Below are positions 6,443-57,279 of a stretch of DNA of 64,000 bases, piece by piece. The position numbers were made by a program, and so were the translations under genes. Where the stretch lies: positions 1,721 through 65,720 of the forward strand of contig CAYUPN010000009.1 in assembly GCA_964446605.1 (NCBI GenBank). Direction: 5' to 3'. This stretch comes from an uncultured Bifidobacteriaceae bacterium. GTDB lineage: Bacteria > Acidobacteriota > Vicinamibacteria > Vicinamibacterales > JAENWD01. A model generated the notes under the pieces. The model was not told the DNA's origin and searched no databases. It saw only the letters and a list, made by a program, of their open reading frames with translations. The number at the start of each line of letters is the position of its first letter. Positions within the stretch are counted from its first letter, which is position 1.

Positions 6443-6512
6443 CTGGGCCTTCGACTTTGGGCTCTGGGCCGTTCGTGGGCCTTGGACTTTGGACTTTGGG
6501 CCTTGGGCCGGA
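6443..6512. repeat. Degenerate tandem array of GGGCCTTGG / GACTTTGG words
   Basis: tgggccttcgactttgggctctgggccgttcgtgggccttggactttggactttgggccttgggcc. It uses the same word family as 26634..26734. Confidence 0.75.
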
Positions 6513-14547: not shown

Positions 14548-15009
14548 GTGGAGCGCACGAATCGACGCAGGTTCTTCGTGAAGACGGCACTGGCGGCGGC
14601 GGGCGCCGGCGCGGTGGCCACGGCGGCGCAGGCCCAGGAGGCCGGGCCGGTGAAGAAGGTGCACTGGCGCGGCGGCCGGCGGCCGAACAACCCGTTGTTC
14701 AGCCCGGCCGTGATCTACGGCAACCTGGTGTTCATCTCCGGCATCGGCGCGCACTTCGAGGGAGACATCACGGCGCATACCGATCACGTGCTGAAGGAGA
14801 TCGAGAAGCTGCTGGCGGAGGTCGGGTCGTCGATGGAGAAGGTGCTGAAGGTGAACGTGTACCTGAACGACCTGAAGGACTACGCCGCGATGAACGAGGT
14901 GTTCCGCGGCCGGTTCGGCCCCGAACCCGGCGTGCGCACGACGATCGCCGCGGCCGCCGGGATTCCCGGCAACTCGCTCGTCGAGATCGACTGCATCGCT
15001 CACATCTGA
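14548..15009 (+). CDS. RidA/YjgF-family protein with a Tat-type signal peptide
   Basis: AGGAGG lies 7 nt before the GTG. RRRFFVKTALAAAGAGAVATAAQA is followed by ...VFISG...KVNVYL.D......N.VF...P.RTT.....P....VEID. Confidence 0.75.
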   Translation: MERTNRRRFFVKTALAAAGAGAVATAAQAQEAGPVKKVHWRGGRRPNNPLFSPAVIYGNLVFISGIGAHFEGDITAHTDHVLKEIEKLLAEVGSSMEKVLKVNVYLNDLKDYAAMNEVFRGRFGPEPGVRTTIAAAAGIPGNSLVEIDCIAHI

Positions 15010-15010
15010 C

Positions 15011-15130
15011 GGATCGGGTGGGATCAGGTCTGATCGGGTCGGATCGGGTCGGATCAGGTCTGATCAGGTCGGATCGGGTCGGATCAGGTCTGATCAGGTC
15101 CGATCAGGTCTGATCAGGTCTGATCAGGTC
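15011..15130. repeat. 12 tandem, perfectly phased decamers KGATCRGGTC, each containing GATC
   Basis: Read directly: ggatcgggtg ggatcaggtc tgatcgggtc ggatcgggtc ggatcaggtc tgatcaggtc ggatcgggtc ggatcaggtc tgatcaggtc cgatcaggtc tgatcaggtc tgatcaggtc. Confidence 0.95.
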
Positions 15131-15155
15131 GCGCGACCGCTGATCGCGGTCGCGC
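15131..15155. terminator. Perfect 10-bp GC hairpin GCGCGACCGC-tgatc-GCGGTCGCGC between convergent genes
   Basis: Perfect inverted repeat with a 5-nt loop. The loop carries another GATC in phase with the decamer array. Confidence 0.55.
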
Positions 15156-15202
15156 AGCGTGGCTCGCCCGGTACGGCTGTCCTGACGCCTGCTCCGACCC
15201 GA

Positions 15203-18200
15203 TCAGAATCCCGTTCTGAAGCCGAAATCGAACGACCACCCGCGCGCCGGCGCGTCCATCGCGCGGACGACGGCGAATTCGAGCGGCATGCCGCCGGCGT
15301 TGATGCGGACGCCGGCGCCGATGCTGTTCACGGAGCGTCGGGTCATCGGCTCCGACCCGTTGCGCCCGCGGCTCCAGACCAGACCGCTGTCCGCGAACAC
15401 GAAGCCCTCCATCGGGATGATGCCGTAGGTCAGATCTCTCGAGAGGAGCCCCAGGAGCGGCGCCCGCACCTCGAGGTTGGCGACGAACAGGCGGCTGCCG
15501 AGCAGATCGTCGAACGACGTGCAGCGCCCGGCGGCGTCCCATTCGCACCGGAGATCGCTCCAGCTGTAGCCGCGCACGAAGTACCGCGACCCGAGAAAGG
15601 TCGGCACGAGCCGGGGATCGTGGGCATCGCGGCCGTACTGGCCCAGGTGGAGCAGGCGCGTCGCGATCGTGTAGGGCTTCGCCGGCATCATGTAGCGGCG
15701 ATAGTCGGCGAGGACGCGGGTGTGGGAGAGCCCGCCCACGCTGGGAGCCACCTCGAACCGGTACCGGCCGCCGAGAATCGGCCCGGTCGGCCCGTACACC
15801 GCGGTGTCGCCGACGAACGCCATCGCGATCTCGCCCATCGTCGCGGGCTCGCCGCCGGGTTCGGAGTAGCGCTGCTCCTGCAGCGTGCGTCCCGTCTTCA
15901 GGCTGATCGTCCGCGAGCGGACCTCGCGCGTGAAGCGCGCATGCCGCACGCCGGCAATCAACTCCACACGCTGCGATCGGTTGAGGGGGTACGCCAGCAT
16001 CGCGCCGACCCGCCCCTGGATCCGGACCAGATAGTCGCTCTGGCTGTGCAGGGCCGGCTGGTCCTCGAACTCGGTCATCGTCCGCGAGGGCAGGCGCCGG
16101 AGGCCGGGTTCGAGCTCCGCGAGCAGCCCCCAGTTGAGCCGCTGCTCCTGGTTCAGGAAGCGCAGAGCGAATGCGAAGTCACGCAGGCGGCTGCCGGCCT
16201 GGAAGGCGGTGAGCAGCTTGCGCTCGCCGAGCAGGTCGCCGAAGAGCAGGGATCCGCCGCCGCGCACGTAGGAGCCGAGCGGTCCGCCGCCGGAGCTCAG
16301 GTACGGCTGGCCGATGGCTTCGAGCGAGAGGTCCGGGCGATACGGTCTGGTCGAGATCGGAACCGCCGGCGCAGGCGCGGCGGACGTGATCGCCGACGCG
16401 ACGAGCGTGTCCTTGCGCGCGGCCGGCGGCATGCCGCCGGTCGCGAACGCGCGCGCCGGCACCGCCTCCCGCGTGTCCTCGCCGCGGTAGACGCGGACCT
16501 CGTACCGTCCCTTGCGGTAGACCGTGAGCGCGAGCGCGTCGGTGTCCAGCGCCGACGACAGCGCCGGACTCGTTTCGGCGAGCCCGCCGACCCCACCCGG
16601 CTCGTTCGACAGCTGGACCGCCCGGTTCGTGGCCAGATCGAGGCGATAGACGTGGCTGATGCCGCCGGGGTCGGCGATGAAGTACAGCGCCTCGCTTCCG
16701 GCCGACCACTGCGGGTTGACGTGCCGCGCGCCCTCGAAGACCTCGAGCGCGCGGACCTCGCCGGAGGCGACGTCGAGCAGCGCGAGACCGGGCTGGCCGA
16801 GCTCCAGCGGATCGAGCTTGCTGGTGAACCGCTCCGTGGCGAACGCAATCCGGCGGCCATCCGGCGACCAGGCGGGGTGGAGGTCGGCGAACGGGTCGTT
16901 CGTGAGCTGGCGGAGCTCGCGGGCCTCGAGGTCGTACAGATAGAGGTCCGTGATGCCGCCGCGCAGGAGCGCGAACGCGATGGCTTGTCCTTCCGGCGAC
17001 CAGGCCGGCGAGAGAATCTGCCCGTTCTTCGGCAGCCGGACCTCATGGCGCTCGCCCGGATCGGCCATGTCGAGGATCACGAGGCTCGGACGCCCGCGAT
17101 CGATGGCCGAGAAGACGAACTGCGCGCCGTCGTGGCTCCAGGCGCCGGCCGACCGGATGGCCTGCAGGCTCTCGATGCGCACGCTGTCCCTGGTCGTGGC
17201 CAGCTTGCGGAGGATGCGCCCGGTCTGCGCGTCCGCCTCGAACAGATCGATTGAGACGCGATCGCGCTCGGAGAAGAACACGACGCGGCGCCCGTCGGGG
17301 CTGATGGCGGGGCCGAGCTGCATGCGCCCGCCGCGTTCGTTCTGCACCAGGGCCGCGCCGCCCGGTGCAGGCACCGCTTCCCTCGGGTCTTTCCGGCCAT
17401 CGTCGCCGCCGGCGTCCGGTGTTCCGTAGTGCGCCCGGGCGGACGAGAGAAAGTCCTCGTACAGTCCCTGCACTCTCTCACCGGTCAGCCGTTCCAGCCG
17501 GCGCGAGATGCTGCCGCCGCGGCGGAGCTTCAGCGTGTCGGCGACGATCTTGTCGCCGAACCGGCCGGCGAGATAGGCCCAGAACGCATGTCCGAACCGG
17601 TAGGGAGAGAACCGCCGGGCCGCGGTGGACTGCGAGTCGGGCAGCAGATCGTGCAGGACGGCATCCCGCAGCCAGGCTTCCGTCTCCACGTCGGTGCTGC
17701 CGCGGGAGAGGTACTGCGCCATCCCCTCGACCGCCCAGAGCGGCCAGGTCAGCGACCCGCCGCTGTGGCGCACCATGTCGAACTGGAAGGCGTGTGCGAG
17801 CTCGTGGCCGAGGATGCGGTCGGTCTCCCCGAGCGTCGGCGCAAACGGCATCGTGATGCGGCGCCTCGCCGAGTCGGTCACGCCGCCGATGCCATCGCCC
17901 AGAATGCCTGAGACGACGTTCGTCTGCTGGAACTCGGGCTGGCTGCCGTACAGGATCAACGGCTGACGTCCGCTCAGCTTGTGGCCGAGCAGCGTCGAGA
18001 AGCGCGCGTACCACCGCTCGGCAAGCTGGGCGGCCAACCGCGCCGACTCGGCCTCGTCGGGGTAGTGGTAGACGTCGAAGTGCTCGGTCGCGAGTACCCG
18101 GAATTCGAAGTTGGAGTACTCGACCTTGTTCCGCCCGAAGTACTGCGCCGCGGCGTCTCGCGCGCCCGGGGCGGCGCACAGAAACACGAATGTCAGCACC

Positions 18201-18223
18201 GCCAGGCGTGAAACCTGCGCCAT
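15203..18223 (-). CDS. Zincin (HExxH) peptidase domain fused to a TolB-like PD40 beta-propeller and a C-terminal Omp85 (bacterial surface antigen) beta-barrel
   Basis: Signal peptide, then HELAH at nt 17792-17806. Repeated ..SPDG..(I/V)(A/V)F.. PD40 blades follow. The C-terminus reads ..VRGYS...ANLEVR.PL....FADSG.VW....GAGVR....FGFRTGF and ends in F. Confidence 0.7.
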   Translation of the reverse strand: MAQVSRLAVLTFVFLCAAPGARDAAAQYFGRNKVEYSNFEFRVLATEHFDVYHYPDEAESARLAAQLAERWYARFSTLLGHKLSGRQPLILYGSQPEFQQTNVVSGILGDGIGGVTDSARRRITMPFAPTLGETDRILGHELAHAFQFDMVRHSGGSLTWPLWAVEGMAQYLSRGSTDVETEAWLRDAVLHDLLPDSQSTAARRFSPYRFGHAFWAYLAGRFGDKIVADTLKLRRGGSISRRLERLTGERVQGLYEDFLSSARAHYGTPDAGGDDGRKDPREAVPAPGGAALVQNERGGRMQLGPAISPDGRRVVFFSERDRVSIDLFEADAQTGRILRKLATTRDSVRIESLQAIRSAGAWSHDGAQFVFSAIDRGRPSLVILDMADPGERHEVRLPKNGQILSPAWSPEGQAIAFALLRGGITDLYLYDLEARELRQLTNDPFADLHPAWSPDGRRIAFATERFTSKLDPLELGQPGLALLDVASGEVRALEVFEGARHVNPQWSAGSEALYFIADPGGISHVYRLDLATNRAVQLSNEPGGVGGLAETSPALSSALDTDALALTVYRKGRYEVRVYRGEDTREAVPARAFATGGMPPAARKDTLVASAITSAAPAPAVPISTRPYRPDLSLEAIGQPYLSSGGGPLGSYVRGGGSLLFGDLLGERKLLTAFQAGSRLRDFAFALRFLNQEQRLNWGLLAELEPGLRRLPSRTMTEFEDQPALHSQSDYLVRIQGRVGAMLAYPLNRSQRVELIAGVRHARFTREVRSRTISLKTGRTLQEQRYSEPGGEPATMGEIAMAFVGDTAVYGPTGPILGGRYRFEVAPSVGGLSHTRVLADYRRYMMPAKPYTIATRLLHLGQYGRDAHDPRLVPTFLGSRYFVRGYSWSDLRCEWDAAGRCTSFDDLLGSRLFVANLEVRAPLLGLLSRDLTYGIIPMEGFVFADSGLVWSRGRNGSEPMTRRSVNSIGAGVRINAGGMPLEFAVVRAMDAPARGWSFDFGFRTGF

Positions 18224-26633: not shown

Positions 26634-26734
26634 TTGGGCCTTGGGCTCTGGGCCTTCGGGCCTTCGGCCCTGGGCCTTGGGCTGGCCTTCGGCCTTCGGC
26701 GGGCCTTGGGCTCTGGACCTTGGGCGTTGGGCGG
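26634..26734. repeat. About 11 tandem 9-mers GGGCCTTSG
   Basis: ttgggccttgggctctgggccttcgggccttcggccctgggccttgggctggccttcggccttcggcgggccttgggctctggaccttgggcgttgggcgg. It begins 2 nt after the stop codon. Confidence 0.9.
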
Positions 26735-27651: not shown

Positions 27652-27738
27652 GCGACCTGAGCCGACCCGAAGCGACCTGATCCGATCCGGAACCGGGCTG
27701 ACCCGACCTCATCCGACCTGATCCCCGACCTGATCAGC
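27652..27738. repeat. Degenerate array (about 8 units) of CGACCTGATC, the reverse complement of the 15011 decamer
   Basis: gcgacctga gccgacccga agcgacctga tccgatccgg aaccgggctg acccgacctc atccgacctg atccccgacc tgatcagc. Confidence 0.7.
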
Positions 27739-57234: not shown

Positions 57235-57279
57235 TCGATTGCGGATTTCGGATTGCGGATTCCGGATTGATTGCGGATT
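57235..57279. repeat. Tandem GATTGCGGATT words (GGATT six times)
   Basis: cgattgcggatttcggattgcggattccggattgattgcggattc. Confidence 0.85.

Follow-up and report, generated by a model that had tools for sequence, protein, structure and literature searches.

What is a run of twelve GATC-containing decamers, closed by a GC-rich hairpin, doing in the spacer between two convergent genes? The question is raised by positions 15011-15155 of the 64,000-nt stretch of DNA analysed here (the window), which belongs to a Vicinamibacterales genome (Acidobacteriota; 4.66 Mb in 304 contigs, 70.3% G+C) and in which the decamers begin just behind a gene for a RidA/L-PSP protein. A first-pass annotation of the window had offered several readings of this element: a methylation-dependent protein-binding array with SeqA-like logic, intrinsically bent DNA, a hypervariable variable-number tandem repeat (VNTR), or a terminator or insulator. 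Set against the rest of its genome and against related genomes, the array with its hairpin very probably belongs to a lineage-specific family of non-coding mosaic repeats with about 200 copies. With equally high confidence, we regard the family as a non-autonomous mosaic that resembles repetitive extragenic palindromes (REPs) and bacterial interspersed mosaic elements (BIMEs), and that carries a slippage-prone minisatellite as its head. The array is not a control site peculiar to the RidA locus.

The basic description of the element was confirmed from the sequence and with Tandem Repeats Finder (TRF). Twelve 10-bp units succeed one another on the plus strand at 15011-15130 with no insertion or deletion, beginning 2 nt past the RidA TGA (15007-15009), and run directly into a perfect hairpin. 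In order from 15011 the units, twelve as assembled, are GGATCGGGTG, GGATCAGGTC, TGATCGGGTC, GGATCGGGTC, GGATCAGGTC, TGATCAGGTC, GGATCGGGTC, GGATCAGGTC, TGATCAGGTC, CGATCAGGTC, TGATCAGGTC and TGATCAGGTC. The consensus KGATCRGGTC, originally given for the whole array, is exact in ten of them and fails in two, unit 1 ending in G and unit 10 starting with C. TRF reports a period of 10 with 10.9 copies, 89% matches and 0 indels, along with a higher-order repeat of period 30 (4.1 copies at 93%), and units 4-6 recur exactly as units 7-9. The hairpin, GCGCGACCGC-TGATC-GCGGTCGCGC at 15131-15155, has a perfect 10-bp stem and a 5-nt loop and folds on both strands; its loop GATC starts at 15142, 130 nt or 13 periods past the first GATC at 15012, and is in phase with the array. 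A two-unit pattern finds 14 matches in the window against 0.03 expected from dinucleotide shuffles. The array has no coding capacity, as its TGATCA units give stop codons in all six frames. Open reading frames and Pfam matches also confirm the position of the array between convergent genes, RidA/L-PSP on the plus strand and a PD40/Omp85-like gene on the minus strand, and the RidA TGA is that gene's native stop, its position being kept in orthologues.

A polar mosaic of decamers and hairpins

When an array is called at three or more units with one mismatch allowed per unit, the genome contains 195 decamer arrays, on both strands, of 3-14 units as assembled. Ninety-two of them lie within 60 bp of a contig end, which amounts to about 15% of all contig ends (92/608); the repeat therefore often halts the assembler, and the lengths given here are minimum values. 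When arrays and their hairpins are merged, 197 islands of 30-305 bp result, which together cover at least 19.6 kb, and the modules within an island are co-oriented, both decamer orientations being present in only 3 of the 197.

The islands have a consistent polarity. With the decamer written as GATCRGGTCK and a strong fold defined as a 40-nt flank below -15 kcal/mol, arrays of at least five units have a strongly folding flank on the 3' side in 63 of 72 cases and on the 5' side in 10 of 72 (Wilcoxon p = 1.5e-11), while the left flanks in this orientation consist of unique DNA with no shared terminus beyond a frayed decamer. The same direction is apparent in the 45 interior islands that hold two or more decamer blocks separated by hairpin modules: the uniquely longest block is the first in 37 and the last in 2, and first blocks average 5.6 units compared with 1.9 for the others. 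After a hairpin the decamers resume for one to three units, and another hairpin may then follow. The element is a polar mosaic, with a long decamer head and then GC-rich hairpin modules.

Four classes of hairpin were counted as exact matches to a regular expression (7-45 intergenic copies each): class A, CCGCCCGCGC...GCGCGGGCGG; class B, CCGCCTTCGCCCGCG...CGCGGGCTTCGGCGG; class C, canonically GCGCGNCCGC-TCGCTGATCCnnGCTC-GCGGNCGCGC; and class D, which is longer and of the CCCTCCTCCGCCCTTCGGGCTACGGAGGG type. Most copies adjoin decamers (A, 42 of 45; B, 7 of 7; C, 18 of 27; D, 6 of 7). The copy in the window is a simple member of the family, a 12-unit head followed by one hairpin, and that hairpin is a short-loop form of the class C module, its exact sequence occurring once in the genome. 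Compensatory changes give the class C stem no support, the variable position being Watson-Crick paired in 9, G-T paired in 2 and mismatched in 10 of 21 copies. An apparent contrast in class A between uniform stems and varied loops (33 distinct loops among 35 copies) was set aside as circular, as the copies had been chosen by their exact stems. A strict perfect-stem finder detects hairpins at 31% of decamer arrays and 3% of random positions, figures that serve as a relative measure only since this finder under-calls hairpins. Identical class C modules stand about 100 bp apart on one contig in two cases (C256:2369/2465 and C286:1619/1721), which indicates local tandem duplication of the whole block of hairpin plus decamers.

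Gene context and orthologous loci

Gene context was assigned with a crude caller based on third-position G+C (GC3), and, since some arrays share islands, the counts are partly dependent on one another. Both neighbours were called for 72 arrays, which comprise 45 in tandem, 21 in convergent and 6 in divergent spacers, against a genome baseline of 64% tandem, 15.5% convergent and 20.6% divergent (chi-square p about 0.001); convergent spacers are thus enriched about two-fold, and the promoter-bearing divergent spacers depleted about 2.5-fold. Array orientation has no relation to local GC skew as a guide to the replication strand (p = 0.48), and in tandem contexts it does not follow the direction of transcription to a significant degree (16 vs 29, p = 0.07).

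Where an array faces the 3' end of a gene, it tends to abut the stop codon: 53 of 63 such arrays start no more than 13 nt from the stop or overlap it. In 28 the reading frame first meets a stop at the TGA within a TGATC that lies in or at the array (offsets -2, -12, -22 and -32), and in 25 more the stop lies at most 13 nt before the first GATC, all of these offsets resting on the crude GC3-based frame calls. Heads at stop codons can be seen, for example, at C2:64871, C15:60216, C66:3323 and C87:5872 in this genome as well as at 15007-15012 in the window. For some genes, the repeat may supply the stop codon together with the final few codons.

Only two species, the present one and its congener G006 (a metagenome-assembled genome from soil), have the family in abundance. 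A three-unit pattern matches 591 times in the present genome and 171 times in G006, but only 4 and 6 times in two further relatives (G011 and G013), whose arrays are few, short and without hairpins, and it has no match in the 27 other relatives or in about 296 further genomes of the class (128 genera). Outside the class, the GATCRGGTCG decamer does form intergenic arrays of three to six units, again lacking hairpin modules, in unrelated bacteria of high G+C such as Streptomyces, Kitasatospora, Planctomycetaceae, Sporichthyaceae, Thermomonas, Phycisphaerales, Cellulomonas and Nitriliruptoraceae. We considered and rejected a shared mobile element as the source of these; because a given decamer microsatellite can recur among 185,000 genomes, they are most simply independent microsatellites. 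A scan of metagenomes with the hairpin unique to the window returned one unrelated coding match, in a transporter gene.

The congener also carries the locus itself. In G006 the RidA orthologue (94% amino-acid identity) is followed by the same convergent gene, and the spacer reads, in order, a TGA overlapping the first degenerate unit, three degenerate units, a class B hairpin, two units, the terminal hairpin GCGCGACCGCTGATCGCGGTCGCGC and the 3' spacer. The terminal hairpin is identical in the two species, although some bases of the largely conserved spacer beside it differ, and both junctions are kept, whereas the interior differs, with 12 units here and three units, a hairpin and two units in G006. 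The shared junctions and terminal hairpin imply that the element predates the split of the two species; on this alignment it is ancestral at the locus and internally unstable. The hypervariable VNTR proposed at first holds in this sense, as variation between species (12 vs 3+2 units in G006, with other orthologous loci behaving likewise).

Six aligned loci tell the same story: the left junction is conserved while unit numbers differ, with head lengths of 8 v 4, 5+2 v 1+3, 6 v 2+2, 6 v 2, 6 v 7 and 2+1 v 3, and most of the six also vary in which classes of hairpin module they hold and in how many. As the flanks are about 90% identical, the interior of the element turns over faster than the surrounding DNA. 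For most arrays of G006, the orthologous site in our genome carries an array or is a contig end, and in a reverse survey covering 716 kb of G006, most islands with a mappable flank have decamers at the corresponding G006 site. That survey yielded no clean empty site from which insertion boundaries could be defined.

Origin of the mosaic and competing explanations

These comparisons suggest how the mosaic may have arisen and how it changes. A single spread of the family in the ancestor shared by the two array-rich species would have been followed by evolution mostly in place. Head length may change by slipped-strand mispairing or unequal recombination, at times by three units per step, as is suggested by the exact 30-bp repetition of units 4-6 in units 7-9. 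Hairpin modules may be gained, lost or exchanged through decamer homology or, alternatively, could enter by some transposition step for which the decamers serve as landing site. At the locus in the window, the element probably only fills the convergent 3' spacer.

Several observations weigh against this account of a dispersed, slippage-prone mosaic. The mobility of the family is inferred from its dispersal rather than observed, and no transposase or other mobilising activity was identified for it in this genome. Slippage alone does not account for great length being confined to the head block or, since it does not consume flanking DNA, for the tight placement of the head against stop codons. 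One island (C39:35331) is clearly absent from G006 in the 716 kb surveyed, its site there holding another repeat, GGGAARC words around a hairpin, so that at this orthologous spacer the second mosaic type described below stands where our genome has the decamer mosaic. The count of 12 units comes from a draft of short-read type in which the repeat often breaks contigs, and the statistics on gene context are limited by the crude caller and the shared islands.

One alternative is that the array, or at least its length, was produced by the assembler, and we consider this extremely improbable: contig ends at 92 arrays do show that the repeat often cannot be traversed, and a 30-bp higher-order repeat could allow collapse or expansion, but the array in the window is made of non-identical units and bounded by unique sequence on both sides in one contig, the independently assembled G006 has the same element in the same place with the same junctions and hairpin, and at least three further genomes, assembled independently, also contain the decamer family. 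Hardly more credible is the idea of a phased DNA-binding platform, whether bound cooperatively on one helix face by a protein that recognises either the GGTC half-site or GATC in any methylation state, much as hemimethylated GATC clusters are bound by SeqA, or acting through intrinsic curvature in nucleoid organisation. The exact 10-bp spacing within the array, the plausible genome-wide set of about 200 sites and the presence of an orphan D12-class adenine methylase gene would fit such a role, and SeqA-bound or Dam-regulated GATC clusters of gamma-proteobacteria (oriC, pap, agn43) likewise hold several GATCs about one helical turn apart. Those clusters, however, comprise few sites, which are found in promoters or origins and have SeqA, Lrp or OxyR as their readers, whereas the arrays here follow genes, number about 200, vary in length and lose their phase across modules. 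No SeqA homologue was found in the genome by a search that detects the SeqA of E. coli, and the methylase is independent of the arrays: 23 of 31 relatives across the order, array-free ones included, encode one conserved copy of it, and it was not found in the array-rich G006. GATC frequency in the genome is neutral (observed/expected 0.95, Markov estimate), and the arrays contain only about 1,143 of its 41,343 GATC sites. Placement on one face of the helix, which had been proposed along with bending, is also weakened. Across hairpin modules the phase is kept in 18 of 188 cases, no more than chance would give; in the canonical class C module the loop GATC falls 25 nt past the last GATC of the array and thus half a turn (about 5 nt) out of phase, the in-phase loop GATC at this locus being a by-product of its shortened loop; and arrays of 7-bp units (147) are about as many as those of 10-bp units (151 in the same comparison). 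Copy number moreover varies freely between species, and the family is missing from nearly all relatives. The 10-bp phase within the array is simply the length of the unit, and the idea of a special methylation-reading or bending device beside RidA is thereby removed.

An effect on RNA, which would be compatible with a dispersed mosaic repeat, has better prospects, though we still judge it somewhat unlikely. Here the 3' structure would end or protect the convergent transcripts, slow terminating ribosomes and lower RidA output, much as REPs do. RNA of 15005-15165 folds at -93.3 kcal/mol on the plus strand (z = -7.3) and -70.1 kcal/mol on the minus strand (z = -8.1), the terminal hairpin is unchanged in G006 amid differing spacer bases, and the family's preference for convergent over divergent spacers and for positions at stop codons points the same way. 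In E. coli, ribosomes stall and translation is lowered where a REP lies less than 16 nt from a stop codon (cited in PMC12306157), and the structure in the window, 2 nt past the RidA stop, begins within that range. Strong folding, however, follows automatically from having a palindromic GATC once per 10 nt, a given locus is free to carry different unit numbers and hairpin classes in different species, and the lack of a significant orientation preference relative to the upstream gene indicates that no particular RNA strand is required. As to the terminator or insulator suggested initially, the hairpin is conserved and has a GC-rich stem, but neither strand has a T-run after it, the U-tract of an intrinsic (Rho-independent) terminator is missing, and a scan of 14900-15300 gave 0 terminator-like sites. 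A terminator without U residues or a 3'-end barrier is possible; by analogy with E. coli REPs, the stable hairpin and folding array RNA could form such a barrier or affect translation termination, and an RNA effect on RidA is a possible side effect of the repeat. A more far-reaching proposal, which we hold to be unlikely, is that the GC-hairpin modules are moved by a recombinase or transposase acting on single-strand DNA, with the decamer head as its specific landing and cleavage site, or that, alternatively or additionally, the stop-abutting heads exert a regulon-scale control of translation termination or of mRNA 3' ends that is tuned by copy number. The landing-site version would explain why modules enter in one orientation, 3' of the decamer, why they differ between species and why heads lie exactly at stops. 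Slightly less likely still is a true REP/REPIN system in which ordinary REPs are moved by the genome's own REP-associated tyrosine transposases (RAYTs) with the decamers as mere linker. Two RAYT homologues are encoded (72.8 and 109.7 bits against a cut-off of 80), the hairpins are short, imperfect, GC-rich, extragenic and multicopy palindromes that cluster and are biased to gene 3' ends, and GTAG-tagged REPs sometimes stand at the edge of decamer islands. Each RAYT gene nevertheless has a palindrome of its own, GTACGGGTGTCTGACACCCGTAC on both sides of one and GGCCGAACTGAAGTTCGGCC on the assembled side of the other, whose remaining flank is an N gap, and neither gene is flanked by decamers or by hairpins of classes A-D within the surrounding sequence covered. 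The three GTAG/GTAC-tagged families of the genome, of which the third is GGCGGGGC..GCCCCGCC, number 41, 73 and 45 copies, and only 0/41, 6/73 and 8/45 of these are near decamers. Hairpins A-D have GGTC(C/T) as their 5' border and GATC as their 3' border in place of the GTAG or CGTC tags that define the two REP superfamilies (PMC3733652), and no head-to-head dimers of the REPIN type were seen among them. On the basis of the flanks, a RAYT as direct mobiliser of the decamer mosaic was rejected.

Two observations on the genes just named may be added. The RAYT loci lie at C24:36725-40060 and C144:623-3952, each with its own GTAC/GTAG-tagged palindromes. The D12 methylase gene (C218:575-4059) sits directly downstream of a decamer/hairpin island, between genes for an AP-endonuclease-2-fold protein and a GGDEF protein, and it is because these neighbours are unrelated that we call it an orphan.

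Related repeat systems and neighbouring features

The decamer mosaic behaves like a REP/BIME family but fails the tests of a RAYT-linked REP. As in the REP, BIME and REPIN elements of Enterobacteria and Pseudomonas, tens to hundreds of extragenic GC-rich palindromes occur in mosaics with conserved linkers (PMC3733652), and palindrome clusters that alternate with conserved linkers, as in BIMEs, are seen in the 45 multi-block islands. Further resemblances (PMC12306157) are enrichment at gene 3' ends, depletion from divergent spacers, a patchy distribution in relatives and frequent positions no more than 15 nt from stop codons. A REP family without a dedicated transposase has a precedent in the CGTC superfamily (PMC3733652). 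Where the present family departs from REPs and BIMEs is that its linker is a tandemly expanding 10-bp minisatellite forming a long polar head, that its hairpins carry neither tag, and that the RAYTs of the genome are flanked by other palindromes.

The interspersed repetitive units of mycobacteria (MIRUs) that serve as VNTRs offer a second comparison, as a dispersed intergenic tandem unit with locus- and lineage-specific copy number that lies tight against start or stop codons (PMC12548453). The same unit in tandem at many dispersed intergenic loci is found here as well (195 arrays). MIRU units of 40-100 bp nonetheless contrast with the 10 bp of the present repeat, whose stops in all frames leave no coupled open reading frame and which has hairpin modules and belongs to another phylum. 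The BOX elements of Streptococcus pneumoniae (boxA-boxB(n)-boxC) are modular, non-autonomous intergenic repeats with an internal module of variable tandem copy number, with AT-rich modules of 45-60 bp between fixed A and C ends. Unlike in BOX, the module that varies here is terminal, and the left end is not fixed. The islands also do not resemble miniature inverted-repeat transposable elements, as they have no shared left terminus and range in length from 30 to 305 bp.

No description of such a family was found in the literature we searched. What is new is a mosaic whose linker has become a minisatellite, in a compact element with strict polarity and tight stop-codon placement, whereas the REP/BIME-like kind of repeat is already known. 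The host phylum, here soil Acidobacteriota of the class Vicinamibacteria, has barely been studied, and a repeat found at about 15% of contig ends probably causes many assembly breaks; the same repeat would provide ready-made VNTR markers for strain typing. If the landing pad or the control of termination proposed above were real, it would be a new way for small non-autonomous repeats to spread or act.

Around the element, the window holds the following features. The RidA/YjgF (Endoribonuclease L-PSP) protein of 153 aa is encoded on the plus strand at 14548-15009 (PF01042, 4.2e-21) and has a twin-arginine N-terminus, VERTNRRRFFVK. That it begins with the twin-arginine motif VERTNRRRFFVKTALAAAGAGAVATAAQA suggests export, a predicted location that differs from the normally cytoplasmic one of this family. 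The head array at 15011-15130, with its 30-bp higher-order repeat, is the expandable part of the mosaic, and beyond the terminal hairpin a unique spacer, largely conserved in G006, extends over 15156-15202 up to the stop codon of the convergent gene. This gene, at 15203-18223 on the minus strand, has a 1006-aa product that combines PD40 (TolB-like beta-propeller) repeats with an Omp85-type barrel at the C-terminus (PF07676, 9.4e-18; PF01103, 4.1e-05). Pattern matching and inspection of the sequence place a second, degenerate copy of the decamer family, inverted, on the minus strand at 27652-27738. When Rfam was searched at a permissive threshold, the best matches scored 22-31 bits against cut-offs of 70-95, none reaching its gathering score, and these sub-threshold matches were to microRNA-precursor models and reflect only the long fold-back.

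Repeats of other kinds accompany the decamers. The 7-bp arrays belong to the families AGGGGCC, AAACGGG, AAGGCCC, AGCTGCC, AATCCGC and others, with representatives in the window at 26634-26732, 6476-6509 and 57237-57269, and their abundance suggests that this lineage tends generally to build short intergenic tandem arrays. There is also a second type of mosaic, in which GCGCG...CGCGC hairpins have their stem extended by inverted arms of GGGAARC words (gggaagcgggaaacgggaagg ... ccttcccgtttccc); it occurs in this genome at C1:77524, C12:13693, C19:20873 and C63:2128, and in G006 at C153:19395-19801.

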